From positions 5,664,001 through 5,728,000 of the forward strand of contig OZ245742.1 in assembly GCA_965227295.1 (NCBI GenBank): 64,000 nucleotides of DNA. The letters are read 5' to 3'. The notes under the pieces are model-generated. The model was not told the DNA's origin, searched no databases, and saw nothing but the letters and a program-made list of their open reading frames with translations. Numbering within the stretch: the first letter of the stretch is position 1; every line of letters starts with the position of its first letter. This DNA comes from Leptonemataceae bacterium. GTDB lineage: Bacteria; Spirochaetota; Leptospiria; Leptospirales; Leptonemataceae. Shown here piece by piece: positions 2,933-28,735 of the stretch. Position numbers and translations under genes: made by a program.

Positions 2933-4824
2933 GCCCCGAATCGTGATGTAAGTGCAGGCCAGTGTACATTAATGCTTTTATGGGTACGGCTGGTTCCAGC
3001 TGACGCGCGGAGGTTATGCCGGGGAACGTGGTACGGCGGACCGGAACGGCGTCTTCGCCGCAAGAAACGCTGCGATAGCTGAGTCTTGCAATTTACCTCA
3101 TGGTTCTCACAGCAACAGTCACGAACCGCAGTCCTTGAATTACCGGAAACGCTCGGGTAATTCGCACACGCCCCGAATTGTGACGTAAGTGGCGGTCAGT
3201 GTACATTAATACTTTTTTGGGTACAACTGGTTCCAGGCGACCACGGAGGTCATGCCGGGGAACGTGGTACGGCGCACCGGAACGGCGTCTTCGTCGTAAA
3301 GATCCATCCCGCGAATCCGCACCCCGGAGCCCCGCTCTATCCGCGGGGCGGAGCGGGTGCGGGTTCGCGATAGCTGAGTCGCAAACCGACGTCCGGGTCG
3401 AACGCAGCATTCTTAACAAAACGAAAATCCACAACATTTCTGAAGTCGGACAGGCCCCGGCTTATCCCTTAATCTCGCCGAAGCGAGATTAAGGCTCCCG
3501 CTCAGCCGTAGCCAAAAAAGGCATTTCACGGTTGCGCAACTTACCTTATGCTTCTCACAGCAACAGTCACGAACCGCAGTCCTTGAACTACCGGAAACGC
3601 TCGGGTAATTCGCACACGCCCCGAATTGTGATGTAAGTAGCGGTCAGTGTACATTAATACTTTCATGGGTACAACTGGTTCCAGGCGACCACGGAGGTCA
3701 TGCCGGGGAACGTGGTACGGCGCACCGGAACGGCGTCTTCGTCGTAAAGATCCATCCCGCGAATCCGCACCCCGGAGCCCCGCTCTATCCGCGGGGCGGA
3801 GCGGGTGCGGGTTCGCGATAGCTGAGTCGCAAACCGACGTCCGGGTCGAACGCAGCATCCGTGAGCAAAACGAAAATCCACAACATTTCTGAAGTCGGAC
3901 AGGCCCCGGCTTATCCCTTAATCTCGCCGAAGCGAGATTAAGGCTCCCGCTCAGCCGTAGCCAAAAAAGGCCTTTCACGGTTGCGCAATTTACCTTATGC
4001 TTCTCACAGCAACAGTCACGAACCGCAGTCCTTGAATTACCGGAAACGCTCGGGTAATTCGCACACGCCCCGAATTGTGATGTAAGTAGCGGTCAGTGTA
4101 CATTAATACTTTCATGGGTACAACTGGTTCCAGGCGACCACGGAGGTCATGCCGGGGAACGTGGCAAGGCGCACCGGAACGGCGTCTTCGTCGTAAAGAT
4201 CCATCCCGCGAATCCGCACCCCGGAGCCCCGCTCTATCCGCGGGGCGGAGCGGGTGCGGGTTCGCGATAGCTGAGTCGCAAACCGACGTCCGGGTCGAAC
4301 GCAGCATTCTTAACAAAACGAAAATCCACAACTCCCGCTCAGCCGTAGCCAAAAAAGGCATTTCACGGTTGCGCAACTTACCTTATGCTTCTCACAGCAA
4401 CAGTCACGAACCGCAGTCCTTGAACTACCGGAAACGCTCGGGTAATTCGCACACGCCCCGAATCGTTGTGTAAGTGGCGGTCAGTGTACATTAATACTTT
4501 TATGGGTACGGCTGGTTCCAGCTGACGCGCGGAGGTTATGCCGGGGAACGTGGTACGGCGGACCGGAACGGCGTCTTCGTCGTAAGGAACGCTGCGATAG
4601 CTGAGTCGCAAACCGACGTCCGGGTCGAACGCAGCATTCTTAACAAAACGAAAATCCACAACATTTCTGAAGTCGGACAGGCCCCGGCTTATCCCTTAAT
4701 CTCGCCGAAGCGAGATTAAGGCTCCCGCAAAGCTGTAGCCAAAAAAGCCCCTTCACAGTTCCGCGACTTACTTCATGTTTCTCACGGCAATCGCAAGGAA
4801 CCGCAGCTCTTGAATTACCGGAAA
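2933..4824. repeat. tandem array 1 of a modular non-coding repeat (5 cores plus a partial unit)
   Basis: Anchor GTACATTAAT at 2964, 3201, 3649, 4098 and 4486 (spacings 237, 448, 449, 388). Units are near-identical, with optional hairpin modules. Confidence 0.95.
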
Positions 4825-4908
4825 TTCTCTGTCGTTCGAACACGCCGAACGGCTGGTTCGCGGCCCATGTGTTGATTGACCGGAATGTTCGCACGGCGAA
4901 ACTCGGCC

Positions 4909-5997
4909 ATGGCCTTCGCCTTTCATTCGGTCGTCCTCGAACGGGCCTCGGGTTTATGGAAGCACCACGACCTGGCCCTGGGCATCGAAGGCATCGACAC
5001 CCAGCATGCCTGGCTGGTGGCGGTGATCCTGGAACTGGAGTGGGTCCTGAATCGCGAGAGCGAAGGCGCGGACCAGTACATCGCCATGTTGATCCAGCAT
5101 GCGAAGAGCTACGCCGCGGAACACTTTAACGTCGAAGAAGAACTCTTTCGCCGCCTGCATTACTCGGACGAAGAGCACCACGTGCGCAGCCACCGGAACT
5201 TCATCCAGGCCGTGGAAAAGGTGGCGCCGGGTTCGTATGATCGCGCCGGGGCGAACAAGCTGTACCGACTGCTGCGCATGTGGCTGGTGCATCACATCTT
5301 GCAGGAAGACCGCGGCTACGCGGAGTACTTTAAGAAGCGCCGGCTCCTGGACGACGCCAACAAATTGTTCGAGGAAATCGATCAGGAAAAACACGTCCTG
5401 GACGACTATCGCCGCCAGGTCTTCAAAACTATTTCCGGTTCGGCGCGGAACATCGAGGTCACCACGCCCGAAATCCAGGCGGAGATCGCTTCCATCTGGA
5501 AACGCCTGAACCTGCAGATCCAGGTCCCGCTGATCGACATCCAGCACCTGTGGTTGATCAAACTCGTCGTGGATATGGACCAGGCCATGCGCGATTCGAA
5601 GCTCACCCGGGACGCGGTGCTCGCGCATACGATCGCCGAGGCCTCGGAGTACATCGACGTGCACTTCCGCACCGAGGAGCAGTTGATGGACATCATCGAG
5701 TATCCGGACAAAGCCCGGCACCAGGCGACCCATCGCAAGTTCGTGGAGTTCGTACAGCAGCGCCGCAAGGAACTGGAGAGCGGCAACACCCGGGCGGCCA
5801 TGACCCTGGTCAACGATCTGCGGCAGTGGCTGACGAATCACATTGCCCTGGACGACAAAACCCTGGCCGAACACTACCGCAACCACCGCGAGGCGGCCCT
5901 GGCGTTTTCGAAAGAAAAAATCGTTTCCGGCGAAGCGCACGTCCGCCGCAATCAGATTAACTTATACCAGATTATTGTTAAGAAGCAGGCCGTATGA
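4909..5997 (+). CDS. bacteriohemerythrin with two tandem hemerythrin domains
   Basis: Two full ligand sets: IDTQH/HFNVEE/HVRSH/WLVHHILQED and IDIQH/HFRTEE/HQATH/WLTNHIALDD. Start ATG 4909 chosen; the ORF extends to 4876. Confidence 0.92.
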   Translation: MAFAFHSVVLERASGLWKHHDLALGIEGIDTQHAWLVAVILELEWVLNRESEGADQYIAMLIQHAKSYAAEHFNVEEELFRRLHYSDEEHHVRSHRNFIQAVEKVAPGSYDRAGANKLYRLLRMWLVHHILQEDRGYAEYFKKRRLLDDANKLFEEIDQEKHVLDDYRRQVFKTISGSARNIEVTTPEIQAEIASIWKRLNLQIQVPLIDIQHLWLIKLVVDMDQAMRDSKLTRDAVLAHTIAEASEYIDVHFRTEEQLMDIIEYPDKARHQATHRKFVEFVQQRRKELESGNTRAAMTLVNDLRQWLTNHIALDDKTLAEHYRNHREAALAFSKEKIVSGEAHVRRNQINLYQIIVKKQAV

Positions 5998-6722
5998 TCG
6001 CGTTGATGATCGCACTCGTTGCCTGGGGGGCCGGACTCACGGCCCTGGCCGGAGGCGCGGCGGCGTTATGGCGGCACAAACCGGGCGGCCGCGAGGCGAG
6101 CGACATTCAACTGCGCCTCCTGCACGGCATCGTCGCCTTCGGCGGCGGCGTGTTACTCGCGGCGGTAGCCTTCGCGCTTTTGCCGGAAAGCATGGATCTG
6201 CTTCCGGGCTACGTGCTCGCCCCCGCGTTCCTGGCCGGCGGCGTAATTTTTGCGCTCTTCGATGCGTGGCAGGCGCGCCACGGCAAAACCAAAAACACCG
6301 CGCAGTTCCCGGCGATGCTCATGGACTTCGTTCCCGAAGCGGTTTCCCTCGGCGCGGTCTTCGGCCACGATCGTCGCCAGGGCATTCTGCTCGCGGCTTT
6401 CATCGCCCTCCAGAATTTTCCCGAGGGTTTCAATTCCATGCGCGAGATGCTGGTATCCGGCACGGCACCGGGCCGTGTACTGCGGCGCCTGGCGCTCGTG
6501 AGCCTGCTCGGCCCCGCCGCGGCACTGGCCGGGCACTTCTTTCTACAGGAATTGCCGTACGTTACCGCGACGTTGATGGTCTTCGCATCCGGCGGGATTC
6601 TGTATTTGATCTTTCAGGACATCGCCCCGCAATCACGACTCCCGCGACACTGGAGCCCCACCCTGGGCGCCGTGCTGGGTTTTCTGCTGGGCATGATCGG
6701 GCATAAGTTTCTTTCACCGTGA
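5994..6722 (+). CDS. ZIP family (ZupT/GufA-like) divalent metal transporter
   Basis: Multi-TM protein with AFGGGVLL...LLPE, MDFVPEAVSLG, IALQNFPEGFNS and FASGGILYLIFQDIAPQ motifs; ATGA overlap with the upstream gene. Confidence 0.9.
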   Translation: MIALMIALVAWGAGLTALAGGAAALWRHKPGGREASDIQLRLLHGIVAFGGGVLLAAVAFALLPESMDLLPGYVLAPAFLAGGVIFALFDAWQARHGKTKNTAQFPAMLMDFVPEAVSLGAVFGHDRRQGILLAAFIALQNFPEGFNSMREMLVSGTAPGRVLRRLALVSLLGPAAALAGHFFLQELPYVTATLMVFASGGILYLIFQDIAPQSRLPRHWSPTLGAVLGFLLGMIGHKFLSP

Positions 6723-6839
6723 GTTAGTTCGCGTAAGATTTTTTCGCGGTTCGCCTGTTTTCGCTAACTATTTGCCGCCGCAAGCTATGTGCGGAATTTT
6801 TTGGATTGCGCGGGCACGTACTTCGAATATGCCGTACGC

Positions 6840-7706
6840 ATGCGCAGTCGATTGGCCGCGGCCGGCCTGGTTTTGGTTTTTTGCATGTTGCCCGGGCCCG
6901 GCCTCGCGTGCCTGGCCCTGCCGGCCACGACGTCCATCAACACCGTCGACGTGGAACGGCCCGTCGATGCGCTCGATCGCAGCGCGGATAGTACGGGCAA
7001 CTGTCTCGGCGGCGCTCCGGCAACGACGGCTCCCCGCGGCCACAATCCGCTGCTCTTCGTCTCGCGCGAGGGCTACTCGCTCGGCTACTCCGGCTTTATG
7101 CGCTCGGCCCTGTGGGTCTGCGAAATCATCGAGGCCAACGAACTCACCGGCGACGCGAAACGCAAGAATCGCTTCAAGGCGGATCCGCTCATTCCGGGAC
7201 AGTGGCAGTCACAGCTCTCCGACTACAAATATTCCGGCTTCGACCGCGGACACCTGGCCGCCGCCGGTAATTACAAGCACGATCAGGAGTTAAACAACGA
7301 GTCGTTCTATCTTTCGAACATGGCGCCGCAGGTTCCGGGCTTCAATCAACAGATCTGGCGGGAGCTGGAAGAACTGAGCCGCGAGTACGTCGACGAGTTC
7401 GACACGGGCATCTACGTGATTACCGGCGGCTTCTTAGAGGATCATCGCGAACTCCGAAGCATCGGCGCCAACAAGGTCGTGGTGCCCTCGCATTTCTACA
7501 AGATTCTTGTGCGCGAAAGTTACGGTGAACATACGAGTCTCGCCTTTGTTCTGGAGAATCGCAAGCACCGCCGGCCGTTCCATTTCGCGGCCTTCCTCGT
7601 GAGCATCGACTCGATCGAAGCACGCACGGGGCAGGATTTTTTTCCGCGGATGCCGGCGACGGAACAACGGCAACTGGAAGGCGCGGCCGCGGCGGGCTTG
7701 TGGTGA
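6840..7706 (+). CDS. secreted DNA/RNA non-specific endonuclease (NucA/Endonuclease_NS family)
   Basis: Signal-like N-terminus; YKYSGFDRGHLAAAG, FYLSNMAPQ, FNQQIWRELE and VPSHFYKI motifs. Confidence 0.93.
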   Translation: MRSRLAAAGLVLVFCMLPGPGLACLALPATTSINTVDVERPVDALDRSADSTGNCLGGAPATTAPRGHNPLLFVSREGYSLGYSGFMRSALWVCEIIEANELTGDAKRKNRFKADPLIPGQWQSQLSDYKYSGFDRGHLAAAGNYKHDQELNNESFYLSNMAPQVPGFNQQIWRELEELSREYVDEFDTGIYVITGGFLEDHRELRSIGANKVVVPSHFYKILVRESYGEHTSLAFVLENRKHRRPFHFAAFLVSIDSIEARTGQDFFPRMPATEQRQLEGAAAAGLW

Positions 7707-8744
7707 TCAGCGCCCGTGCGGGTGGCAGTTCCGCAAGGTATCGCGCAGGCGATCTTTCGAAACGTGGGTGTAGACCTGGGTCGTCGAGAGCGAGGCGTGA
7801 CCGAGCAACTCCTGCACCGCGCGAATGTCCGCTCCGGCGTTGAGCAGGTCCGTGGCGAAGCTGTGGCGAAACTTGTGCGGGCTCACGTTACGGTGAATCA
7901 TGAGGCGCCGCTGAATCATGCGCAGAATGTGTCGCGCCCCGCGATCGCTTAACCTCTCGCCGCGAGCATTTAAGAACAAGGCTTCGTCGCGGGCCGCGGC
8001 CCCGCGCACCTGCAGGTATTCACGTACCGCCTCACGCGCGGCGTCGCCGAAAAAAACGATGCGGTCTTTGCGCCCCTTGCCGGTGATCTTGAGTTCCCGC
8101 GGCGCGCGAACCAGCTGATCCGCCGTGAGCGAGAGCAGTTCGCTGATCCGCATGCCGGAGGAGTACAACATTTCGCACAGCGCCCGGTTACGGCGTTGCA
8201 GAAACACCCGGCGCTCCGGGTTTACCGTGCCCGTTTCGGCATGCGCCGCCGGATCATCGTCTTCCAGCAGATGCCCCAGATCGGCCGGGGTCAGAACCAC
8301 CGGCAACGGCCGGCTGAACTTCGGCGCGTTGAGTTCCGCCGCGGGATTATCGCCGACGAGTTTCTCCCGGCGCTCCAGATCCCTGTAGTAACTTTTAATG
8401 GCCGAAAGTTTGCGTGCTTGAGAACGCGCTCCGAGTTTTCGCCGTTTGCTGCGGCCGGCAACGCTGTTGGCCTCGGCGCGGCCGCCGCCAAAACGCGCGC
8501 CGGTGCGTTCGGCGAAGTAGGTGCGCAGTTCTTTCGGAGTAATGCGCTCCGGTTCGCCGGCGTTCTTTGCGAGATAGACGAAGAACTCCCAGAGATCCTT
8601 GAGATACGCACGCAGGCTGTGCGGCGAAAGATCGCGCTGGTAGGCGAGCGTGTCGTGAAACGTGCTCAGCTCGGCCTGGAGATCCGGGCGGGCGTCCAGT
8701 TGTTCCCAGGCGCCGACGGGGAGATGGGTGGCGGCTTCGGGCAT
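7707..8744 (-). CDS. xerC: tyrosine recombinase XerC
   Basis: Catalytic residues present: YSSGMRISEL (R), GKGRKDR (K), HKFRHSFATDL (HxxR), LGHASLSTTQVY (H, Y); ends in HPHG. Co-oriented with hslV. XerD cannot be fully excluded. Confidence 0.85.
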   Translation of the reverse strand: MPEAATHLPVGAWEQLDARPDLQAELSTFHDTLAYQRDLSPHSLRAYLKDLWEFFVYLAKNAGEPERITPKELRTYFAERTGARFGGGRAEANSVAGRSKRRKLGARSQARKLSAIKSYYRDLERREKLVGDNPAAELNAPKFSRPLPVVLTPADLGHLLEDDDPAAHAETGTVNPERRVFLQRRNRALCEMLYSSGMRISELLSLTADQLVRAPRELKITGKGRKDRIVFFGDAAREAVREYLQVRGAAARDEALFLNARGERLSDRGARHILRMIQRRLMIHRNVSPHKFRHSFATDLLNAGADIRAVQELLGHASLSTTQVYTHVSKDRLRDTLRNCHPHGR

Positions 8745-8785
8745 GATTTGATTATCGGAAGATTTTTACAGGAGGTAGAGAGGGT

Positions 8786-8939
8786 CTCAGCTATCGCAGC
8801 GTTTCTTACGGCGAAGACGCCGTTCCGGTCCGCCGTACCACGTTCCCCGGCATAACCTCCGCGCGCCAGCTGGAACCAGCCGTACCCATACAAAGCTTAA
8901 TGTACACTGGCCGCCACTTACATCACGATTCGGGGCGTG
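8786..8939 (-). repeat. solo inverted copy of the ~150-bp core of the modular repeat
   Basis: Reverse complement matches the array core CGCCCCGAATCGTGATGTAAGT...GTGTACATTAAG...GCGATAGCTGAG. Confidence 0.93.
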
Positions 8940-9004
8940 CACAAACAACCCGTCACCAATCGCTAACACAAGAAATCAACACGATCCTGTTGTCCCGGTC
9001 GCCC

Positions 9005-10174
9005 TTATTCCCCGCCGCTCCGAAACTCCGCCACCGAATCCACGCTGCCCTTCAAATGCTCGGTGGTATCCGTGTAGAATCGCACCATCTTCGCCCGCGC
9101 GCTCGCGGGTAACTGGAGCGGCATGCCCGCATTATTCTGTAAGTACTCGTTCACCGGCAGCACAAAATACTTCCGCCCCGCCTGCCCGCGTTCCACATAA
9201 ACCCACACGGGCTCGTAAGAAATATCGCGAAACACCACTTTTTGATCCGATTGCTCGTCCGGGTTGCGTTCGATGGTGAACTGGAAGATCTTGCCGCCGT
9301 CGGTGTAGCGCCGTTGCTGATTCGATACGAAGTTGCCCAGGCTGAACGCGATCAAACGATCGGCGGTGCGGCCGAATTTGTCGGTAACGTTCGTGCGTAC
9401 ACCGAACGGTTGCAGCACGTGCGGGTGCCCGCCGATGACGATGTCGGCGCCGTGTTCGATGGCGAAGTCCGTCCACTTCTTCTGGTAGGCATCCGGCTGC
9501 CGCAGGTACTCGCCGCCGTAATGGTAGATCACAATGATGGCATCGGCGTTCGTGCGGCGCGCGGCGGCCAGGTCGTAGACGATGCGTTGTTCGTCGATGA
9601 GGTTCACCACGGTACCGCGCGGAACTTTGATGCCGTTGGTACCGTACGTAAAATTCAAGAACGCCAGGCGCAGGCCGTTCTTTTCAACGACGAGCACGCG
9701 CCGATCTTCTTTGTCCTGCACGCTGCGATACGATCCCAGGTGCGCGAACCCCAAACGTTCCACGACCTCGATGGTACGCAGCATGCCGGACTTGCCCTTG
9801 TCGAGGGTGTGATTGTTCGCGAGCGTGAGCACGTCGATGCCCGCATCCTTTAAGGCGACCGCCAGGGAATCCGGCGCGCCGAACGTCGGGTAGCCGCTGT
9901 ATTTTTTGCGGTCCCCCGGCAGCGTCGTTTCGAGATTGGCAATGGCCAGATCGGCGCGGCTCAGATACGGGGCCACCGGTTCGAAGGTATGCGCGAATTC
10001 GTAGCGTTTCGTCTGCGCGTTCCAGGCGGCGCTCAGTTGCGGGGCATGGCACATCACATCGCCGACAACGGCCATGCTCACGCGATCCGGGCGCTCGTCG
10101 GAGCCGTTCAGGGCAAACGTACACCCGGCGGCGGTTAAGAGAATCGCGAGACTGTACTTTACGAAACGTTTCAT
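9005..10174 (-). CDS. CapA family (PGA_cap) metallophosphatase-fold protein
   Basis: VGDVMCH, ANLET, LANNHTLDKG, HYGGEY, IGGHPHVLQ and FSLGNFVSNQ motifs; signal peptide from Met at 10174. Confidence 0.92.
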   Translation of the reverse strand: MKRFVKYSLAILLTAAGCTFALNGSDERPDRVSMAVVGDVMCHAPQLSAAWNAQTKRYEFAHTFEPVAPYLSRADLAIANLETTLPGDRKKYSGYPTFGAPDSLAVALKDAGIDVLTLANNHTLDKGKSGMLRTIEVVERLGFAHLGSYRSVQDKEDRRVLVVEKNGLRLAFLNFTYGTNGIKVPRGTVVNLIDEQRIVYDLAAARRTNADAIIVIYHYGGEYLRQPDAYQKKWTDFAIEHGADIVIGGHPHVLQPFGVRTNVTDKFGRTADRLIAFSLGNFVSNQQRRYTDGGKIFQFTIERNPDEQSDQKVVFRDISYEPVWVYVERGQAGRKYFVLPVNEYLQNNAGMPLQLPASARAKMVRFYTDTTEHLKGSVDSVAEFRSGGE

Positions 10175-10185
10175 AAGAATGTATG

Positions 10186-10323
10186 ACTCCGAGGACCGAG
10201 GTACCGAGATAGAAGATGAGAGCATCCGTATGAAGAGCACTGACAGGCTAAGACGACTATTTTTAACAAGCTCGCCCATCCAAACTCTTTCTTTTTATTC
10301 CTCGGTCCCTCAGTCCTCGGAGT
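10186..10323. repeat. short REP/MITE-like element with 23-bp imperfect terminal inverted repeats
   Basis: ACTCCGAGGACCGAGGTACCGAG (10186-10208) versus CTCGGTCCCTCAGTCCTCGGAGT (10301-10323), 2 mismatches. A related copy lies at 21842. Confidence 0.75.
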
Positions 10324-10333
10324 AAAAAAGTTT

Positions 10334-11395
10334 TCACTGCTTGCCCGCGGTCTCCAGTTGCCCCGGCGTTTGTTCCTGGATCGAGAGGCCCTGCTCCAGT
10401 TTGCGGTTGTGTCGGATCATGTCCAGCACGCGGAAGCCGCCGTCTTTGCGCATCCAGGCCTGGTAGACCAGCAGCGGCTGGATGTTGTAGTGAAACGGGA
10501 AGTCGTCCGGAAACTTTTCGCCCTCGGGATATCCCAGCGTGTGCTTCGTGCCGGTGGTCGTCGTGCGAATGATGAGACTCTTTTCGTCGGCCGGCAATGC
10601 CAGCATGTTCGCTTTCATCGGATCCGGGAAGCGCATGTACTCCTCGGCGTTGGACGTGTAGACCAGGCGCACCGGGACCTGCATGCGCCGCGCCGACATG
10701 GCGATGTTTTGCATGGTCACACTGCCTTTCAAATCTCCCGGCACCGCCTGGATGCGATTGTCCAGGATCATGGTGCGGATGTATTGATAGTCCGCGGGAT
10801 TGTTGGAGAACGTGGACAGACCGAAGCGTTTGCTCATCATGTCCAGTTCGCGCAGACGTTCGGGCACGTCGTTCCAGTTGCGATGCGCCACCTTCCAGGC
10901 GTTGCGAATGCGATAGAAATCCGGCTCGCCGCCGAAGCGTTTTTCCAGGAGCTCGAAGCTGCTCTTGCGATTCTTGCGCTGCCAGAGCTCTTTGTACTCC
11001 GCGTAGGTCGGCGCCTGGCGAATGAAGAACATGTGAATGCGATTCACGTCCACGGAAACGTAGTCGAAGTCCATGAGCCAGGCATACTCACTCTTCGCCC
11101 AGGCGATGAACGTGAAGTTTTGATCGGTGCCGACGCCGATGTAACCGCCGCCCAGGTTTTGAATGTGCGGCGCGAACAGATCGATGCGACGTTCGTTGGA
11201 CGACGGATAGTGATCGGCGTGGAGGTTGCGGTCCTCGGGCAGCGAATCCACCGCGGACAAGACGAAGTGCCGGGCGCGCTCGCGTTTGTCCGGGCCGGTC
11301 TCACAGGCGCTCAGCGCAAGCACGAAGATCAGGGGAATCCACACCGTCCAGCGGTGGTACGAACGACGGCGGTGGAAGACAGGACGAGGAAGCAT
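10334..11395 (-). CDS. hypothetical lipoprotein (resembles a Leptospira conserved lipoprotein family)
   Basis: Lipobox LSAC after a hydrophobic stretch; SNERRIDLF...GGGYIGVGTDQNF...YTSNAEEY motifs, possibly a methyltransferase-like fold. Confidence 0.75.
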   Translation of the reverse strand: MLPRPVFHRRRSYHRWTVWIPLIFVLALSACETGPDKRERARHFVLSAVDSLPEDRNLHADHYPSSNERRIDLFAPHIQNLGGGYIGVGTDQNFTFIAWAKSEYAWLMDFDYVSVDVNRIHMFFIRQAPTYAEYKELWQRKNRKSSFELLEKRFGGEPDFYRIRNAWKVAHRNWNDVPERLRELDMMSKRFGLSTFSNNPADYQYIRTMILDNRIQAVPGDLKGSVTMQNIAMSARRMQVPVRLVYTSNAEEYMRFPDPMKANMLALPADEKSLIIRTTTTGTKHTLGYPEGEKFPDDFPFHYNIQPLLVYQAWMRKDGGFRVLDMIRHNRKLEQGLSIQEQTPGQLETAGKQ

Positions 11396-11494
11396 TGCAG
11401 GGCCAGAATTCCGACCGCCTGGCGCGAGGGCAATTGGAATCCGACCGCTGTTTTCTCATTTACACGCATCCGTGCGATTGCACGCTGGCCGGTC

Positions 11495-12808: not shown

Positions 12809-12814
12809 TCTTTT

Positions 12815-12925: not shown

Positions 12926-12937
12926 CAATAGCTCCCC

Positions 12938-20355: not shown

Positions 20356-21841
20356 GAACGCGAAAGATTTTTCTACTAATAGTTACGGATTCTCCGCTAA
20401 CGAGTACGACGCCGTCATCATCGGCTCCGGGCCGAACGGCCTGGCCGCGGCGGCGGTGCTCACGGATGCCGGCGCCCGGGTGCTCGTCCTGGAAATGGCC
20501 GACGAGTTCGGCGGCGGCACGCGCACCGCGGAACTCACGCTCCCGGGATTTCACCACGACGTCTGCTCCGCCGCCCATCCCATGGGCATCCTCTCGCCGT
20601 ACTTAAAGACGCTGCCCCTGGAACGTTACGGACTGCGCTGGATCCAACCTCCGGTTTCGGTGGCCCATCCTCTCGCCGACGAACCCGCGGTGCTGATGCA
20701 TCTTTCCATCGAAGAAACCGCGGCGAACCTGGACCCGGAAGACGCGCGCGCCTACGAAAAACTCTATCGATCGTTCGTCCGCCACGGCGAAGATCTCTTG
20801 AGCGATGCCCTGGGTCCGTTGAATCGATTTCCGGCGCGGCCGCTGCAGATGATGCGCTTCGGCCTCCTGGGCCTGCGTTCGGCGGCGGGCCTCGCGAAGT
20901 CCCGCTTTCGCGGCCAACGCGCCCGGGCCCTCTTCGCCGGCTGCGCCGCGCACTCGATCCTGCCGCTTTCGTCGCCGCTCTCGGCGGCCCTGGGCCTGGT
21001 ATTTACGGTGACGGGGCACCTGGCGCGCTGGCCGGTGGCCGCCGGCGGCTCCCGGAACATTACTAAGGCACTTTCAGCATACATTAGCGACCGCGGCGGA
21101 GAACTCCGGGCCGGCGTGCGGGTCCGCAGCCTGGAAGATCTTCCGCCGGCGAAGGCCGTGCTCTTCGACACGTCTCCGGCCGAACTCCTGAACATCGCTA
21201 AAGATGCGCTGCCCGCAGGTTACGTAAAAAAACTCCGGCGGTATCGCTACGGGCCGGGCGTCTTCAAACTGGACTGGGCTCTCGACGGCCCGATTCCCTG
21301 GAAAGACGAGCGCTGCCTGCAGGCATCCACGGTGCACGTCGGCGGCACGCTGGACGAGATTGCCGCGGCCGAGTTCGAGGTGGGCGCCGGGCGCCACGCC
21401 GAACGACCGTACGTGCTGGCCGTCCAACAATCGCAATTCGATGACAGCCGCGCACCGGCCGGCAAACATACCGGCTACGCCTACATTCACGTGCCGGGGG
21501 GATCGACTCTGGATCAGAGCGATGTGCTGGAGTCGCAGATCGAACGTTTCGCCCCGGGTTTTCGGGATCGCATCCTGGCGCGCCGGGCCATGCACGCCAT
21601 GGACTTCGAGGCCTACAATCCGAACTACATCGGCGGCGCCATCACCGGCGGTGTCGCCGATCTGCCCCAGGCCTTTCTACGACCGGTCGCCCGCTTCGAT
21701 CCTTACAGTACACCGAACAAACATTTGTACATCTGTTCGGCGGCCACGCCGCCCGGCGGCGGCGTGCACGGCATGTGCGGATACTTCGCCGCGCAGAGTG
21801 TACTGAAGCGGCTTCGGAAGCTTTCCATAAAACGGTTTTGA
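20348..21841 (+). CDS. phytoene desaturase-like NAD(P)/FAD-dependent oxidoreductase
   Basis: DAVIIGSGPNGLAAA, GGGTRTAELTLPGFHHDVCSAAHP and CSAATPPGGGVHGMCG motifs; overlaps the upstream stop. Confidence 0.92.
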   Translation: MPENAKDFSTNSYGFSANEYDAVIIGSGPNGLAAAAVLTDAGARVLVLEMADEFGGGTRTAELTLPGFHHDVCSAAHPMGILSPYLKTLPLERYGLRWIQPPVSVAHPLADEPAVLMHLSIEETAANLDPEDARAYEKLYRSFVRHGEDLLSDALGPLNRFPARPLQMMRFGLLGLRSAAGLAKSRFRGQRARALFAGCAAHSILPLSSPLSAALGLVFTVTGHLARWPVAAGGSRNITKALSAYISDRGGELRAGVRVRSLEDLPPAKAVLFDTSPAELLNIAKDALPAGYVKKLRRYRYGPGVFKLDWALDGPIPWKDERCLQASTVHVGGTLDEIAAAEFEVGAGRHAERPYVLAVQQSQFDDSRAPAGKHTGYAYIHVPGGSTLDQSDVLESQIERFAPGFRDRILARRAMHAMDFEAYNPNYIGGAITGGVADLPQAFLRPVARFDPYSTPNKHLYICSAATPPGGGVHGMCGYFAAQSVLKRLRKLSIKRF

Positions 21842-21915
21842 ACTCCGAGGACCGAGGTTCCGAGGAAAAGAGGAGGTTGCCACCACACTCTCATTCTTCC
21901 CTCGATCCTCGGAGT
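21842..21915. repeat. REP-like inverted repeat between convergent genes (same family as 10186-10323)
   Basis: ACTCCGAGGACCGAGG (21842-21857) versus CCTCGATCCTCGGAGT (21900-21915), 1 mismatch. Confidence 0.75.
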
Positions 21916-21927
21916 CAATCTTCCTTT

Positions 21928-23547
21928 TCAGGCCGCGCCGGCCGCCGCGTTTTTTGCGGCCTTGAGGACCTTCATGAATCCGATGCCGTCCGGGATGGCC
22001 CCTAATGTCGCCATAGCGCCCATTAAGGCGCCGGCGACGCCGGGGCTGCTGACGTCGGCGCCGGTAAGATACAGTCCCTCCACCGGCGTCGCGGCCTGGC
22101 ACCAGGGCGCCACGTCGGAACGAAAGCGCTCGCGCACTGCCGGCACGCCGTAGATCGAACCGCGCGGATGGCCGGTGAAGTACGAAACGGTGAGCGGTGT
22201 CGACAACTCGCGGTATTCGATGAGATCGGCAAAGCCCGGATACTTGCCGTTGATGTAGGCGACCAGGTCATCGGCGATCTTCGTCTTGAAGGCCTCGTAG
22301 TCTTCGCCGCGACGTTTCCAGGTCGTTTCTTTCCATTTCGCGAACGGTTCGTACGGCGTGAGTGCGATGATTTCCGCCGTGTGTCCTTTGGCCTCCGGGT
22401 TTTTCAGTGAGGGAAACGAAAGATACGCGCCGCCGAGAGCGCCCGTGCCTTCGAGCCAGCCCTCGGCGCCGCCGAAGTTTTGGTCATGATTGTAGCTTTC
22501 GTAAATCCAGTGGTTTTCTCCCGCGAACCCCAGGGACCGCGGATCGTCTTTCAAGCCGCAGTAGAGTGTCACCGAGGCCGTCACCGGCATGTTCTTGTAG
22601 AATTCGTTCAGTTCGTTCTTGAACGGAACCGCCGCGCTTTCCGGCAGCAGCCGGTTGTAGGTTACGTGAGCGCCCGCGTTCGAGATGATCAACGGTGCGC
22701 GAAATTCCATGACGTCCGCTTCGCCCTTACGCGCCGTTAACTTGCGCGCACGAACACCTACGGCCTTGCCGTTTTCAACGAGGATCTCCTCCACCTCGTG
22801 AGACAACAACACCTGACCGCCCTTTTCTTCGAGGACGGGCTTCACGGCCTTCGCAATCGAGCCGGCGCCGCCCGTGGGATAATAACCGCCGTTGAGATAA
22901 TGCGCGACGACACTGGCGTGGATCATGAACGAACTCTTTGACGGTGGAATGCCGTAGTCGCCCCACTGAGATTGCAAGAGCGCGCGCAACTGCGGGTTCC
23001 GGAAGTTTTTGTCGAAGTACTGCTGCACCGTGATGTCCGCCGTATCGAAGCCGCTGATATTCAACTGCGATTTGACTTTGTCGACGAAGGGCTCGGATGA
23101 TTTCATGTTGTGCCGGCCGAACCAGGCGTTGGTCTTGCGCACGTCTTCGAAGTAAGCCTCGACGGCCTCGCGTTCGTCCGGGAATTTTTCGATGACCGCG
23201 GCCTTGTAACGATCCTCGCCCGTGGGCACGGCGAACGTGAAGTCCGGGTACACGAACTTTTCGAAGTGATCCGGCATGGGGTTCCAGCCGATGTTTCCGC
23301 GACCGATGATGTCAAAGAGCGTGCGCAGTACCGAGGCTTTGCCCATGTCGCCGATGTAATGGATGCCCACGTCCCAGCTCCATTTTTGTTTGCGGCCGAA
23401 CTCGTGGGTAAAACCGCCCATTACATAGTGCCGCTCCAGCATGAGCACGCGTTTGTCGCGGAACTGGGCGAGAATCGAAGCGGCGGCCATGGCCCCCATG
23501 CCGCTGCCGATGAAGATTACGTCGTAATTGTTTTCGTTCTGAGTCAT
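21928..23547 (-). CDS. phytoene desaturase family / retinol saturase-like FAD oxidoreductase
   Basis: YDVIFIGSGMG, LERHYVMGGFTHEF, WDVGIHYIG, QWGDYG, GGYYP and GLYLTGADV...GVAGA motifs; GGAGG SD upstream of ATG 23547. Confidence 0.92.
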   Translation of the reverse strand: MTQNENNYDVIFIGSGMGAMAAASILAQFRDKRVLMLERHYVMGGFTHEFGRKQKWSWDVGIHYIGDMGKASVLRTLFDIIGRGNIGWNPMPDHFEKFVYPDFTFAVPTGEDRYKAAVIEKFPDEREAVEAYFEDVRKTNAWFGRHNMKSSEPFVDKVKSQLNISGFDTADITVQQYFDKNFRNPQLRALLQSQWGDYGIPPSKSSFMIHASVVAHYLNGGYYPTGGAGSIAKAVKPVLEEKGGQVLLSHEVEEILVENGKAVGVRARKLTARKGEADVMEFRAPLIISNAGAHVTYNRLLPESAAVPFKNELNEFYKNMPVTASVTLYCGLKDDPRSLGFAGENHWIYESYNHDQNFGGAEGWLEGTGALGGAYLSFPSLKNPEAKGHTAEIIALTPYEPFAKWKETTWKRRGEDYEAFKTKIADDLVAYINGKYPGFADLIEYRELSTPLTVSYFTGHPRGSIYGVPAVRERFRSDVAPWCQAATPVEGLYLTGADVSSPGVAGALMGAMATLGAIPDGIGFMKVLKAAKNAAAGAA

Positions 23548-23565
23548 GATCACTCCTCCGCCGGC

Positions 23566-23638
23566 CGGAGCCGGGAATGTTGCCAACGGTAACATTCCCG
23601 GCTCCGAAAGCAAGCAAAAAAGTTACCAGTGGAAACAT
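23566..23638. promoter_or_regulatory. probable TetR operator pair in a divergent promoter region
   Basis: 41-bp palindrome CGGAGCCGGGAATGTTGCC-AAC-GGTAACATTCCCGGCTCCG (23566-23606, one mismatch) and a related site AAGTTACCAGTGGAAACAT (23620-23638). Confidence 0.65.
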
Positions 23639-23702
23639 CCGTTTTTCTTCGCGGCCGCGGGAATTTCCTTGTCCCGTTCCGGCGACCGTGCTCGACTGGC
23701 CC

Positions 23703-24347
23703 GTGGCCCGGAGCGCATCACAGGCGGCCTCTAAGAAAGAGGCGCGTCCCTATCATGTCGGCGACCTGCGCGCGAAGTTGATCGCCGCGGGCCTGGACCT
23801 GGTCCGTACGGACGGCGGGGAACGCGAGCTGAGTCTGCGCCGGGTGGCCCGGGCGGCCGGCGTCACCCATACGGCGGCGTATCGTCACTTCGACGACCGC
23901 GACGCGCTGATCGCCGCCATGGCCGAAGAAGGCTACCGCAAGTTCTACGAGTACCAGAGCGAGCGCCTGGTCGACGCGGGCGAGGACTTCGGCGAACGCT
24001 TTCGCAGCTTAGGTTACGCTTACGTAAGCTTTACGATCGAGAATCCCGAGTACGCCCGGCTCATGTTCGGCCGCGGGGGCATCGACTTCAAGGCCTATCC
24101 GGCGCTCGTCGCCGCGGCCACCCGCACGTTCCGGCGGCTACAGGAAATCATCCGCCTGGGTCAGCGTGTGGGTTTGATCAAGGGCGGGCGCAGCAAGGAG
24201 AAAACGCTCGCGGCCTGGTCCATGGTGCACGGACTGTCCATGTTGATCCTGGACGGCCAGATCAGCCTGCGCGGCGGAGCGGACGACCCGGCGACGGAGG
24301 CCCTGGTTACGTCGGTGATCGGTTTTGTTTATTCGGGAATGCAGTAA
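23703..24347 (+). CDS. TetR/AcrR family transcriptional regulator (WHG-type C-terminal domain)
   Basis: YHVGDLRAKLI...LSLRRVARAAGVTHTAAYRHF helix-turn-helix; WSMVHGL motif. Start uncertain (ORF open from 23577). Confidence 0.92.
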   Translation: MARSASQAASKKEARPYHVGDLRAKLIAAGLDLVRTDGGERELSLRRVARAAGVTHTAAYRHFDDRDALIAAMAEEGYRKFYEYQSERLVDAGEDFGERFRSLGYAYVSFTIENPEYARLMFGRGGIDFKAYPALVAAATRTFRRLQEIIRLGQRVGLIKGGRSKEKTLAAWSMVHGLSMLILDGQISLRGGADDPATEALVTSVIGFVYSGMQ

Positions 24348-24364
24348 CGACGCGGGCTTAAGGC

Positions 24365-25105
24365 GTGTACAATCCGGTCCAGAAAGGCATAGAAAAATCG
24401 GTGCGCTCCGTGCGTTACACCGAGGTGGAGCCGCCGGTAGATCTTTCCACCTTCGTCCATCGTTTCTGGGAGATCAGATCGGAACGAAAGTTAAACGAGG
24501 ACTTTGTGTTTCATGTCCTGCCCGACGCCTGCATCCACCTGGTCTTTAACCTGACCGCTCCGGGAACCGCCGGGCTTACGGCATTGCGCACCGGCGCTGA
24601 AGAACTGAATCTCGGCAGAAGCTTTCACTTTGTCGGCGCGAGATTTCTGCCGGGCATCTGGCGGGGCGGCCGTAGTGAGATCGTTCGCGGCGTCGTTGAT
24701 TCTCCGTATGCGGGGAACCTGCCGTTGATTGAGGTGAGCCGTGAACTCGCGCGTAAAAGTTTTTCGGCAATGCAGCCCGTCTTATCGAATCTGGTCCGGC
24801 AGTTGATCGCGCAAAAATTGCTCACTGATGACGAAGTCACAACCTGTCTACTGGCGAATCTCGACGAGATCGATTCGGTGAGCGACATGGCGAATGCGGT
24901 GGGCATGTCGGCGCGCCAGTTACAGCGGGTCATCCGACAAACAACAGGATTCAGTCCCCACGATCTTCTGAAAGTACTGCGCCTGCAGAAGTCGTTCGTG
25001 CGGAACTACCTGGATTTTTACGCGGACCAATCTCACTATATTCATTCGTTTCGCAGAATCACCGGCTACACTCCGAAAAAGTACGCCGGCAAATTCGGTG
25101 TCTGA
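24365..25105 (+). CDS. AraC-type HTH regulator (DUF6597-like N-terminal domain)
   Basis: VLPDACIHLVF, GARFLPG, MSARQLQR...TGFSP and YADQSHYIHSFRRITGYTP motifs. Confidence 0.85.
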   Translation: MYNPVQKGIEKSVRSVRYTEVEPPVDLSTFVHRFWEIRSERKLNEDFVFHVLPDACIHLVFNLTAPGTAGLTALRTGAEELNLGRSFHFVGARFLPGIWRGGRSEIVRGVVDSPYAGNLPLIEVSRELARKSFSAMQPVLSNLVRQLIAQKLLTDDEVTTCLLANLDEIDSVSDMANAVGMSARQLQRVIRQTTGFSPHDLLKVLRLQKSFVRNYLDFYADQSHYIHSFRRITGYTPKKYAGKFGV

Positions 25106-25174
25106 TTTATACAATACAGCCGGGCCGGAATCGGTTACTCTCCACGTTATATTTTACGTCGAGAGGAATTGGAG

Positions 25175-25549
25175 ATGAGGAAGGCGGGTTTTTTCGATAT
25201 TTATGTAGAGGAAATGGATCGGGCACAGAAGTTCTACGAAGCGGTACTGGATACGAAGCTTCAGAAAATGGACGACCCGAACGACAGCAGCGTGGAAATG
25301 CGCATGTTTGCCGATGATTTCCAGTCCCACGGCGCGGGCGGCGCTCTGGTGAAGATGGACGCCGCCAGGCCGGGCCCCGGCGGAACGATGATCTACTTTA
25401 CGTGTGAAGACTGTTCCGTGGAAGAAGGCCGCGTCGAGAAAGCCGGCGGCAAGATTATCCGGCCGAAATTCCCCATCGGAGAACACGGCTTTGTCTCACT
25501 CGCCGCCGATACCGAGGGCAACATGATCGGCTTGCATTCGATGAAGTAG
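25175..25549 (+). CDS. VOC/glyoxalase family protein
   Basis: FDIYVEEMDRAQKFY...GGALVKM...IYF...GGKI...DTEGNMIGLHS motifs. Confidence 0.92.
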   Translation: MRKAGFFDIYVEEMDRAQKFYEAVLDTKLQKMDDPNDSSVEMRMFADDFQSHGAGGALVKMDAARPGPGGTMIYFTCEDCSVEEGRVEKAGGKIIRPKFPIGEHGFVSLAADTEGNMIGLHSMK

Positions 25550-25584
25550 GTCGAGGCGCGATCCGGAACAATTACGGCATTCTC

Positions 25585-25895
25585 ACCGCAGAGGTGCGGA
25601 GGGCGCGAAGTGGAGGATGGTTTGCGGGATTGAATGCTAACGCTGATTGGTGATGACGCGCGCGAGCGCGTCCAGTGCGGTTGCCGAAGATGTATCTTCT
25701 TTCACGATGCCGGTGGGCCTTTAACGCTTCGATTTCCGCATCGCCGCGCCCAAATCCGCGACGAAAACTCTCGACCTCGAAAAGAATTTTTGACACTTCA
25801 CTCAAACTCTCCGCACCCTTCGCGCCTCCGCGGTAAAGACGTAACGATCGTACCCGCCGAGACACAAAACTCAGTGTCCTCGGCGCCTCGGTGGT
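25585..25895. repeat. REP-like GAG/CTC-rich imperfect inverted arms between convergent genes
   Basis: ACCGCAGAGGTGCGGAGGGCGCGAAG (25585-25610) versus CTCCGCACCCTTCGCGCCTCCGCGGT (25809-25834), 5 differences; an extra right-arm-like copy ends at 25895. Confidence 0.55.
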
Positions 25896-25904
25896 TTATA
25901 AAAC

Positions 25905-27314
25905 CTACCGCACGTCCTTCACATGAAAGTGCAAATCCACCGGCAAGATCTTCGGGAACAGCGTGATCATGATCGTCCCGGCGACGTACATCCACAGCCC
26001 GAATAATCCCGACACCGCAAACATGGACGAGTGAAAGTCCCCCATGCGATCCTGTAAGAGAATCGCGATGGTCATGGCCAGGGCGGCGTTCTGTAGTCCC
26101 GTTTCCAATGCGATGGCGCGGGTTTGAAAGTTATCGACGCGCAGGATCTTCGCGACCACGAGGCTGAAGACCATGGCCGAGAGCGTCAGCGTAAGTACCA
26201 CCGCGTAGAAACTAAGGCCGTAGCGGTCGAAGTCCAGGAAGTGGTGCAGGTTGTTCAGGATGCCCGTAATGATCAAGAACAGCAGCGCGAACACGCCCAG
26301 GCCCGAAAAGTATTTCTCGGACGCCTTCGCGAAGTTCTCGAAGCGCGCGCGAATGCCGAGGCCCACGAGCAGCGGCACGATCACCAATACCAGTATCTGC
26401 ACGATGACGTCTTTCACCGGGATCTCGACGTTGGGTACTCCGGCGGCGTAGAGTTGCAGCAAGAGCGGCGTGAATACGAGCGAGAGAATCGTGGATACGC
26501 CGGTCATGGAAACCGAGAGCGCCAAATCGCCCTTCGCCCAGTAGGTCATGAGATTCGAAGTCACGCCGCCGGGCGACGCCGAAACAAGAATGAGGCCGAT
26601 GAAAATAAACGGATAGCTCTCCGGATAACCGGCGGCGCTGCCCAGGAGATACGCGAGGAACGGCAGCAATCCGAACTGGCACAGCGGCCCCACGATCATG
26701 GCGCGAGGTTTGATGGCCACCATGGCGAAGTCGCGCACGGTGAGCGTCATGCCCATGCCCATCATCACGAAAAAGAGCATGAGCACGATGAAGATAAAAA
26801 ACAAACGATCGATGAAGCCGCGTTCGGGCACGGACTCGAGGCGCGCGAAGTGCCAGAGTTCGCCGTCCACCGTGGCGGTGCCGGCGCGCACGTTGAACTT
26901 CATTTTGTTTTTGATTTTATCGGCGATGCCGGCGTAGGGCGAGTCGCTTTCGGCGGCCAGGGCGGAAGCGTCCTCCGGAATGGAGAGGATGTAGATGTCA
27001 TCGTCGAGGGAGCGCACGAGATAGAGTCCGCGCACCGCGATGCCGGCGTCCGTGTGCACATCGAGGCGGCGCAGGTTGCCGGTGAACTCCAGGGCTTCGG
27101 CGTTTTCGTAATTGTAGTCCCGCGCCGCGTCGGACAACTTCGCGAACAACACCGCGGCATCGAGGCTGCGCTGCATCTTCAGCAGGCGTTCGTACTGTTC
27201 CTCTCCGGAGACCTCTTGCGGTTGTGCCGGTTCGTCTTGCGCTCGCAGGACCGCCGTGCTGACGACTGCCGCCGCCACGGCGATGATGAGAATGTTGTTT
27301 TTATGTTTTCGCAT
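25905..27314 (-). CDS. bile acid:sodium symporter family protein with an N-terminal exported domain
   Basis: MMGMGMTLT, QFGLLP, SPGGVTSNLMTYWAKGDLALSVSMT and ALETGLQNAALA motifs; signal peptide plus ~150-aa soluble extension. Confidence 0.9.
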   Translation of the reverse strand: MRKHKNNILIIAVAAAVVSTAVLRAQDEPAQPQEVSGEEQYERLLKMQRSLDAAVLFAKLSDAARDYNYENAEALEFTGNLRRLDVHTDAGIAVRGLYLVRSLDDDIYILSIPEDASALAAESDSPYAGIADKIKNKMKFNVRAGTATVDGELWHFARLESVPERGFIDRLFFIFIVLMLFFVMMGMGMTLTVRDFAMVAIKPRAMIVGPLCQFGLLPFLAYLLGSAAGYPESYPFIFIGLILVSASPGGVTSNLMTYWAKGDLALSVSMTGVSTILSLVFTPLLLQLYAAGVPNVEIPVKDVIVQILVLVIVPLLVGLGIRARFENFAKASEKYFSGLGVFALLFLIITGILNNLHHFLDFDRYGLSFYAVVLTLTLSAMVFSLVVAKILRVDNFQTRAIALETGLQNAALAMTIAILLQDRMGDFHSSMFAVSGLFGLWMYVAGTIMITLFPKILPVDLHFHVKDVR

Positions 27315-27442
27315 GAAGGACTCCTATCATAGGAGTGGCACCCCGCCCGTGCGCCGCAAGCGAATTTCCGGGGATCCTGCCGCGATTTCGATATGTCCCC
27401 CTTCCCGACTTCCATCGACTTGCGGACAGCAAAATGAATCCA

Positions 27443-28735
27443 TTCATGTTTCTCACGGCAACGCAACGAACCGCAGCTCTTGAACTACCGGAAACGCACG
27501 GGTTTTTCGCACACGCCCTGAATTGTGGTGTAAGTGAAGGCCAGTGTACATTAAGGCTTTTATGGGTACAGCTGGTTCCAGCTGACGCGCGGAGGTCATG
27601 CCGGGGAAATGTGGGGTGCGCACCGGAACGGCGTCTTCGTCGTAAGAAATGCTGCGATAGCTGAGTCGCCAACCGACGTCCGGGTCGAACGCAGTATTCT
27701 TAGCAAAACGAAAATCCACAACTCCCGCAAAGCCGTAGCCAAAAAAACCACTGCACGATACGGCAACCGCAACGAGTCGCAGTTCTTGAATTACCGGAAA
27801 CTCTCGGGTGATTCGCATACGCCCCGAATCGTGGTGTAAGTGGCGGCCAGTTTGTATTAAGCCTTGTATGGGTACGGCTGGTTCCAGCAGATGAACGGAG
27901 GTCATGCCGGGGAATGTGGTAAGGCGCACCGGAACGGCGTCTTCGTCGTAAGGAACGCTGCGATAGCTGAGTCGCAAACCCGCGTCCGGGTCGAACGCAG
28001 CATTTTTTGCGAAACGAAACTCCACAACGTTTCTGAAGGCGGACATGTCCCGGCCTATCCCTCAATCTCGCCGAAGCGAGATTGAGGCTCCCGCTCAGCC
28101 GTAGCCAAAAAAACCACTGCACGATACGGCAACTTACTTCACGTTTCTCACCGCAACCGCAACGAGTCGCAGTTCTTGAATTACCGGAAACTCTCGGGTG
28201 ATTCGCATACGCCCCGAATCGTGGTGTAAGTGGCGGCCAGTTTGTATTAAGCCTTGTATGGGTACGGCTGGTTCCAGCAGATGAACGGAGGTCATGTCGG
28301 GGAATGTGGTAAGGCGCACCGGAACGGCGTCTTCGCCGCAAGAAACGCTACTGTAGCTGAGTCGCAAACCCGCGTCCGGGTCGAACGCAGCATTTTTTGC
28401 GAAACGAAACTCCACAACGTTTCTGAAGGCGGACATGTCCCGGCCTATCCCTCAATCTCGCCGAAGCGAGATTGAGGCTCCCGCTCAGCCGTAGCCAAAA
28501 AAATCCCTTCACCATTGCGCAACTTACCTTGTGTGTCTCACGGCAAACGCCGCGAACCGCAGCTCTTGAACTACCGGAAACGCGCGGGTTATTCGCACAC
28601 GCCCCGAATCGTGAAGTAAGTGAAGGCCAGTGTACATTAAGGCTTTTATGGGTACAGCTGGTTCCAGCTGACGCGCGGAGGTCGTGCCGGGGAACGTGGT
28701 ACGGCGGACCGGAACGGCGTCTTCGTCGTAAGAAA
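27443..28735. repeat. tandem array 2 of the modular non-coding repeat (4 cores)
   Basis: Equivalent anchor positions 27546, 27852, 28242 and 28632 (spacings 306, 390, 390); same core and orientation as array 1. Confidence 0.95.

Follow-up and report, generated by a model that had tools for sequence, protein, structure and literature searches.

A head-to-tail mosaic family of intergenic repeats in a Leptonemataceae bacterium

REP/BIME units are imperfect palindromes of 20 to 40 nt that are clustered in alternating orientation, the repeat units of NIME have inverted repeats of ~20 bp (dRS3) at both bounds, and BOX elements have boxA and boxC ends. Here we analyze a family of intergenic repeats in a Leptonemataceae bacterium (assembly GCA_965227295.1), using a 64,000-nt stretch of contig OZ245742.1 (positions 5,664,001 to 5,728,000) that is called the window throughout; all repeat coordinates are window positions. 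The closest described systems are BIME in Escherichia coli, NIME in Neisseria, and BOX in Streptococcus pneumoniae, which a review presents, in the sections used here, as mosaic intergenic repeats (PMC3184786). Like these, the family in the window is intergenic, non-coding, and multi-copy in one lineage, its modules vary in presence and number, it occurs in single and clustered copies, and it includes hairpin-forming modules and recombination substrates. It has no sequence relation to BIME, NIME, or BOX, and no Rfam family is similar. Its build is unusual in comparison: the main module is a long core of 152 nt that is not palindromic, the 300- to 450-bp units stand strictly head to tail, and only optional modules of 58 to 60 nt are palindromic. 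Unlike BIME, it has no REP palindromes that alternate in orientation, all array units being direct; unlike in NIME, bounding 20-bp inverted repeats of the dRS3 type are missing from the unit alignment; and the boxA and boxC ends of BOX are absent.

Other described systems share parts of this architecture. According to the part of the source used here, nsiR1, a small RNA (sRNA) gene, is present in 12 tandem copies, every one of which has a promoter to itself (PMC4030482). The NsiR1 arrays of heterocystous cyanobacteria are likewise head-to-tail intergenic repeats with a conserved stretch 5′ of each core. NsiR1, however, is 60 nt long and kept across the whole cyanobacterial group near one gene, whereas the units here are 5 to 7 times longer and lie at many loci, and NsiR1 arrays have a promoter in every repeat, whereas the units in the window have no recognizable promoters or terminators. 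The type I toxin-antitoxin loci LDR and QUAD (ldr-rdl, ibs-sib) of E. coli are, in the portion of the report cited, also repeats of a few hundred base pairs that stand in tandem within one intergenic region, have further copies at other places, and lack annotation as genes (PMC2887945); unlike them, our units have no conserved small hydrophobic open reading frame (ORF) and no coding signal. With miniature inverted-repeat transposable elements (MITEs), as treated in the same sections of PMC3184786, they have in common that they are small, non-coding, multi-copy, and without a transposase of their own. Unlike MITEs, they have no terminal inverted repeats, target duplications were not seen, tandem arrays are formed, and the unit does not resemble the IS5 copy of the window. 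They are unlike CRISPR in that the whole 300- to 450-bp period repeats without unique spacers, as had been claimed, and unlike an integron in that the adjacent recombinase is XerC by score and the arrays do not lie at its 5′ side. The preliminary description of this DNA had placed the repeat outside CRISPR, attC, and typical MITEs, and the lack of unique spacers, of an IntI-type integrase score, and of terminal inverted repeats agrees with it.

The repeat family is real and non-coding, its units are gained and lost head to tail, and its copies are mosaics of each other. Our preferred explanation, to which we give about an even chance of being correct, is that the repeats belong with the mosaic intergenic families such as BIME, NIME, and BOX and are reshaped mainly by recombination.

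Repeat loci and unit build

Ten cores with a basic length of 152 nt were found at three intergenic loci of the window, with array A holding five, array B four, and the inverted solo copy S one. A motif search (CGCCCYGAAT...TAGCTGAG) located complete plus-strand cores at 2932-3083, 3169-3378, 3617-3826, 4066-4275, 4454-4605, 27514-27665, 27820-27971, and 28210-28361; the other two cores are a 3′-shortened one starting at 28600 on the plus strand and the minus-strand core of S at 8937-8786. The cores at 3169, 3617, and 4066 measure 210 nt and all other complete cores 152 nt. A core profile run over the 64 kb recovered the same ten cores with E values of 9e-48 to 6.5e-44 (next match, E = 0.13), exact-seed repeat finding gave the same three loci and nothing further in the window, and in a BLAST search of the window with one whole unit only array A, array B, and S matched. 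Repeat finding, motif, profile, and BLAST thus place the repeats, far beyond chance, where the preliminary description had put them. Tandem Repeats Finder reported periods of 449 (97% matches), 306, and 390, and the core start-to-start distances are 448, 449, and 388 nt in array A and 306, 390, and 390 nt in array B. The claim that the repeats are always intergenic also stands, all three loci lying between the starts or stops of flanking genes. Array A begins 39 nt past a stop codon and its 3′ end lies ~60 nt before the likely ATG of a hemerythrin gene (4909), array B is flanked by the start of one minus-strand gene (27314) and the stop of another (28750), and S has a stop (9005) on one side and a start (8744) on the other.

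Unit alignment and module profiles showed that a full unit consists, in this order, of a leader (~84 nt), the core (152 nt), tail1 (~57 nt), the optional module M61, and tail2 (~40 nt). A 16-nt motif, CTTGAAYTACCGGAAA, is exactly conserved in all nine leaders. That units differ by whole modules, as first reported, is correct, with module sizes off by one: pairwise alignment gave 60 instead of 61 nt for M61, which is present in five of the seven full inter-core spacers, and 24 instead of 23 nt for the deletion between GCAAC repeats in the B2 leader, the sum of 84 nt remaining valid. The GC hairpin described as ~60 nt long is present as well and was measured as a net GC-rich insertion of 58 nt in the cores of A2 to A4, accompanied by a 1-nt core deletion. 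It lies at 3310-3369 in A2 and is repeated ~448 and ~897 nt downstream in A3 and A4, the only other units that carry it. M61 (3435-3494 in A2) forms two hairpins, the second of which has a 12-bp stem and a CGAA loop (UUCG on the opposite strand).

Array A (2902-4846, plus strand) is composed of the bare core A1, the full units A2 to A5, and the leader-only remnant A6. A1 (2932-3083) has no tail, is preceded by ~30 nt of diverged leader, and abuts the A2 leader directly. Unit A2 (3088-3535) comprises the leader at 3088-3168, the core at 3169-3378 with the GC hairpin inside it, tail1 up to 3434, M61 at 3435-3494, and tail2 at 3495-3535. A3 (3536-3984) is built like A2, with the core at 3617-3826, M61 at 3884-3943, and one additional base in tail1. 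A4 (3985-4372) contains a core with the GC hairpin (4066-4275) and tail2 (4332-4372) and lacks M61, and A5 (4373-4762) has M61 (4662-4721) and a chimeric core without the GC hairpin (4454-4605). The array ends with a sixth element, A6 (4763-4846), which is reduced to the leader module, ~60 nt before the ATG at 4909. A degenerate sixth core in the 90 nt 3′ of this leader was considered and rejected, as its score was equaled by 16 of 300 shuffles. A leader-like stretch of 50 nt, including ATTACCGGAAACGCGC, was also noted at 31714-31764 within a pta-like gene (30980-31933, just 5′ of acetate kinase; nhmmer E = 0.017); blastx of the units gave no match to the pta-like protein, and the resemblance is probably due to chance.

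Array B (27436-28737, plus strand) contains cores at 27514-27665, 27820-27971, 28210-28361, and 28600 to ~28737, and M61 at 28028-28087 and 28418-28477. B1 lacks M61, B2 has the leader shortened by 24 nt, B3 is a full unit, and B4, also on the plus strand, ends ~15 nt short of the core end, with the stop of a convergent gene 13 nt away. The solo copy S (8786-8977, minus strand) consists of the core at 8937-8786 and ~40 nt of diverged leader at 8977-8938 and ends 41 nt before the ATG of a XerC-like gene (8744). Both A1 and S are thus bare cores with ~25 to 40 nt of diverged leader, and both finish at ...TAGCTGAG. They form an inverted pair of 152 nt with 95% complementarity that spans 5.7 kb and is a possible inversion substrate. 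The enclosed 5.7 kb hold the remainder of array A and the hemerythrin, ZIP, nuclease, and XerC-like genes.

All three measures of coding potential argued against translation of the units. The GC content at third codon positions (GC3) of ORFs inside the arrays was 0.46 to 0.59, compared to 0.76 to 0.82 for six flanking ORFs taken as genes, variable columns were distributed 31/26/35 over the codon phases (p = 0.52), and the ratio of nonsynonymous to synonymous polymorphism (pN/pS) was 0.68 to 1.21 over six frames. The minus-strand frame chosen by gene callers is interrupted in A2 to A4 by the 1-nt deletion. The repeat units are therefore not coding. Sixteen unnamed ORFs called over the repeat are present in public protein sets (P0001-P0003, P0005, P0007, and P0011-P0021), and the minus strand of the window has such ORFs, e.g., at 27453-28046 and 28134-28436; these public entries are probably mis-annotations. 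The idea that the unit is a pseudogene fragment of a gene in the window was discarded, blastx having returned nothing below E = 0.29.

Recombination signatures and copies elsewhere on the contig

The pattern of divergence among the ten copies is that of a mosaic. The inner units of both arrays are near-identical (96 to 99% for the A2 to A4 cores, 97% for the B2 and B3 cores), and the 3′ core halves of A1, A5, S, and B4 are 93 to 98% alike over three loci and 84 to 90% alike to those of their own array neighbors. Because the 5′ part of the A5 core is A2-A4-like and its 3′ part A1/S-like, A5 is a chimera. Modules come and go by precise insertions and deletions, namely the 24-nt deletion at GCAAC, the palindromic insertions of 60 and 58 nt, and the loss of the entire tail where A1 meets A2, and insertions and deletions are located at short repeats. 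The variable fraction was 0.41 in the leader, 0.33 in the core, 0.19 in tail1, and 0.32 in tail2; divergence is thus spread over all modules, which indicates that the core is not a conserved gene set amid free spacer.

In a family reshaped mainly by recombination, arrays would grow and shrink via unequal crossing-over or replication slippage between direct repeats of at least 150 bp; unequal crossing-over explains the head-to-tail growth well enough. Patchy gene conversion may carry sequence types between loci, and short-homology deletion would remove pieces. The hairpin modules may be secondary palindromic insertions, and reaching new loci would need either a trans-acting function or recombination. 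Effects on the host would then be a by-product, for example of the leader motif before the hemerythrin gene or of A1 and S acting as substrate of a 5.7-kb inversion.

Copies outside the window were recognized from ORFs called across the repeat in protein sets, for which 1.84 billion representative proteins were searched. The translation of the minus-strand ORF at 27453-28046 matched short ORFs that are translations of other repeat copies, and a profile search yielded 16 repeat ORFs, every one of them on the 5,938,550-bp contig to which the window belongs. The window itself accounts for one of them (100% at 28137-28436); the remaining 15 differ from all copies in the window, their best tblastn segments being 53 to 81% identical to it. 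As these 15 ORFs are distinct from the window copies and lie on the same contig, the chromosome holds at least 15 further, more diverged copies, in line with the earlier expectation of many copies genome-wide. The external ORFs include whole units (tail2, tail1, core, and leader), an A2-type frameshift variant, and tandem or truncated copies and an alternative 3′ module (examples are P0005 and P0016), the alternative module, "MLSADAESRRFRT...", being present in four ORFs. A seventeenth ORF, P0006, begins in a truncated copy and continues into an unrelated region of 190 amino acids. Among the 1.84 billion representative proteins, no repeat ORF was found in any other genome. A blastn search of plasmid and phage collections with the unit gave no match, nor did the invariant 18-mer of the core have a match in the full-text literature.

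Several observations weigh against recombination as the main force. The variable columns of the core are clustered (42 runs versus 60.7 expected, P = 0.0003), its longest invariant run is 18 nt (P = 0.015), and the same blocks are fixed in ORFs from other loci, where they read PVR, TS, LEPA, and LMYTG.HLHHDSG; such fixed blocks may fit functional constraint as well as multi-base replacement events. The invariant leader motif likewise recurs in three external copies, as its translation VVQEL. Nothing was found to account for the dispersal of the family, there being no terminal inverted repeats, target duplications, or transposase. Moreover, little weight can be put on the absence of the repeat from other genomes, since sampling of this lineage is poor, the nearest relative of the XerC-like protein being only 57% identical. 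A scan of reference genomes with the invariant 18-mer gave at least 79 chance matches and says nothing about absence; at none of the loci listed did similarity to the core profile extend past the 18-mer.

Alternative explanations

The main rival, which we regard as a tentative possibility that is rather less than probable, is a multicopy sRNA gene family. In the manner of NsiR1, every unit would be transcribed separately, the leader acting as its promoter and the RNA comprising the core alone or the core plus tail1; GGAGGU, which is ACCUCC on the other strand, would serve as a Shine-Dalgarno mimic or an anti-Shine-Dalgarno seed. Consistent with this view, GGAGGT is invariant in all ten window copies, and TS, its translation, does not vary in the alignment that includes the external ORFs. 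The conserved leader motif contains the word TTGAAY, which stands at a fixed distance 5′ of every full core (nine of nine, exact), the homology of the bare cores A1 and S starts within ~40 nt upstream of the same point, the conserved blocks are clustered, and the cited part of the nsiR1 study provides a precedent for sRNA genes in tandem that have one promoter per repeat (PMC4030482). The transcription signals themselves, however, were not recognizable. A scan for the sigma-70 consensus detected no promoter on either strand of array A or B, although the host's own promoter consensus may differ, and the putative −10 position differs among units (TAATTC, TGATTC, TTTTTC, TTATTC). No U-tract terminator was found on the plus strand of the arrays, and terminator-like sites on the minus strand, one per array and only at the two spacers without M61, were fewer than the shuffle means of 3.3 and 2.4. 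Furthermore, tail1, which would be spacer, is more conserved than the core, and many external copies are truncated or chimeric.

Tests for RNA structure in the core also spoke against this reading. Rfam gave no gathering-level match in the window and in array A chance matches only (E ≥ 0.9), which fell on the M61 hairpin. The consensus core folded with −35.0 kcal/mol on the plus strand versus −19.6 kcal/mol on the minus strand, a difference that is attributable to base composition because shuffled sequences fold equally well: compared to dinucleotide shuffles, the fold z-scores of four copies on both strands were −0.18 to +1.26. None of the 39 predicted pairs in a seven-copy alignment was compensatory, and the paired fraction was equaled by 500 of 500 shuffles; with 7 to 10 close copies, the fold and covariation tests have little power. 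Tail1 and the tail2-leader segment folded no better than shuffles. Strong hairpins were confined to the optional modules, with z-scores of −3.2 to −4.5 on both strands for the M61 hairpins and −49.9 kcal/mol for the GC hairpin (z = −5.7 on the plus and −3.8 on the minus strand). In the M61 stem, one U-A pair of one array is replaced on both sides by C-G in the other (arrays A and B). The core thus has no detectable RNA structure, and the suggestion of a multicopy structured RNA, made in the preliminary description, fails for the core, whose folds are not better than those of shuffles, which has no compensatory pairs, and for which Rfam has no match.

A broader version, which we consider doubtful, holds that the family represents either at least 25 regulatory RNA genes, each transcribed independently, or a non-autonomous element that targets itself and inserts next to existing copies. 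GGAGGU, GGCUGGUUCCAG, and ACCGGAACGGCGUCUUCG would then be functional RNA or protein-binding motifs, and the arrays would have arisen by a dedicated mechanism and not by plain unequal crossing-over, in a lineage that branches deeply, is poorly sampled, and has a XerC with spirochaete sequences as its nearest relatives.

Transposition taken by itself, in the form of a non-autonomous element without inverted ends in the style of IS200/IS605, IS91, or IS110 whose enzyme is encoded elsewhere and which could insert beside its own copies, appears unlikely. Many dispersed copies in one genome, the lack of terminal inverted repeats that is typical of those insertion sequence (IS) families, the occurrence of one sequence type (A1, A5, S, and B4) at three loci, the common sharp 3′ end ...TAGCTGAG of A1 and S in different contexts, and the presence of hairpin modules would be in keeping with such an element. 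With respect to the ends, the first reading of the sequence was right that there are no terminal inverted repeats: inverted pairs of at least 40 nt all join S to array copies, and none joins the two ends of a unit. By eye, the module borders showed only imperfect matches of 7 to 10 bp. Shared sharp ends were not found, and no target duplications were seen at A1, S, or the array ends, a comparison limited to three loci with fuzzy 5′ borders. The arrays moreover end at different unit phases, array A starting and stopping at a core start and array B starting in a leader and stopping inside a core. An enzyme was not evident either: the ORF scan of the window revealed no transposase, HUH nuclease, or reverse transcriptase near any repeat locus, and none of the 49 window ORFs scanned with Pfam encodes an HUH protein, an IS110 transposase, RAYT (Y1 transposase), a reverse transcriptase, or another candidate. 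The unit has no similarity to the IS5 copy, the only IS in the window, and a PADLOC search for a defense context gave a marginal match only (E = 4e-4).

That the repeats are recombination sites of the adjacent XerC-like tyrosine recombinase, either dif-like or cassette-like or as bounds of an invertible segment from A1 to S, is very unlikely. This idea draws on the end of S 41 nt before the recombinase start codon, on the 95% inverted A1/S pair that encloses 5.7 kb including the recombinase gene, and on a partial inverted repeat, GTACATTAA ... TTATGGGTAC, which was seen by eye to flank the most variable core patch. The protein, however, scores 274 and 258 bits with the XerC and XerD models, far over the 108 bits obtained with the integron integrase model (cut-off 265) and far over the invertase models. 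Its closest non-self relative is 57% identical among the matches listed, and those relatives that carry a name are XerC proteins of Spirochaetia and Leptospiraceae metagenome-assembled genomes. Because it is the sole entry from this contig among the best 120 matches listed and its relatives are named XerC, the protein looks housekeeping. Furthermore, at least 15 other copies of the repeat exist without the recombinase, and direct repeats of an active site would get deleted.

We consider it highly improbable that the units encode a small product, be it the mini-ORF MPGNVVRRTGTASSS, a type I toxin-antitoxin pair as in E. coli LDR/QUAD, or the minus-strand ORF of 93 to 100 amino acids. The mini-ORF, which has 15 to 20 codons and follows GGAGGT, is unbroken and starts with ATG or GTG in every one of the ten copies, type I loci typically occur as intergenic repeats in tandem according to the part of the study cited (PMC2887945), and public gene calls cover the minus-strand ORF. 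The mini-ORF, however, lies within an invariant block and is not hydrophobic, and in the sequence the gap from GGAGG to AUG is only 2 nt. The rule given in the cited part of Fozo et al. demands an ORF of <60 amino acids having a transmembrane-like stretch with at least 10 of 15 residues from IVLFCMA (PMC2887945); 7 of 59 small ORFs barely satisfied it (10 to 11 of 15), and none of these was one peptide kept across the units, so that a conserved hydrophobic peptide was not found. The absent codon periodicity, pN/pS values of at least 0.68, the GC3 far below that of genes, and the disruption of the minus-strand frame in A2 to A4 likewise speak against a product. An assembly artefact, to which tandem repeats of 300 to 450 bp can be prone with short reads, can practically be dismissed, given that the units differ in an orderly way (1 to 20% substitutions plus whole modules), the flanks are unique at all three loci, the record consists of one 5.94-Mb contig, and diverged copies occur at many other places.

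Neighboring genes and significance of the repeat family

The gene 3′ of array A (4876-5997) encodes two hemerythrin domains, its likely start being the ATG at 4909 and not the TTG at 4876. Two long ORFs at 899-2824 (minus strand) and 1091-2893 (plus strand) overlap on opposite strands; the GC3 pattern favors the plus-strand ORF, whose product is weakly sialate O-acetylesterase-like (E = 3e-9). A neighbor of 650 amino acids is a beta-helix-like protein, and matches to DUF3556 came from Myxococcota and Actinomycetota. At 33610-35329, a transposase gene of the IS5 family (DUF772 and DDE_Tnp_1; IS5 at 33610-34725) adjoins a gene for a Uma2-family endonuclease; in tblastn against plasmids, the transposase showed at most 54.5% identity among the matches listed, without taxon signal. 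Tandem repeats of 18 bp lie within long ORFs at 37687-37722 and 59681-59726 (2.0 and 2.6 copies). The minus strand at 42418-62961 harbors a gene cluster for an extracellular contractile injection system (eCIS), which includes the sheath (61489-62961), a T4-type baseplate protein (60150-60908), Pvc16_N (57830-59089), an AAA ATPase (55793-57799), an eCIS core protein (54773-55513), the tube (54132-54767), and a WD40 and Baseplate_J protein of 1,316 amino acids (44682-48632).

What the family means for the organism depends on which explanation holds. If the family is no more than repeated DNA, its importance is mainly practical: it gives rise to spurious gene calls, as with the 16 unnamed ORFs in public protein sets, deletions, duplications, and possibly the 5.7-kb inversion can use it as a substrate, and array length can mark strains. 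If the units were transcribed, they would be among the largest bacterial sRNA gene families; to our knowledge, no regulatory RNAs are known in this lineage. If they were mobile, the way in which they build head-to-tail arrays while lacking inverted ends would deserve study.

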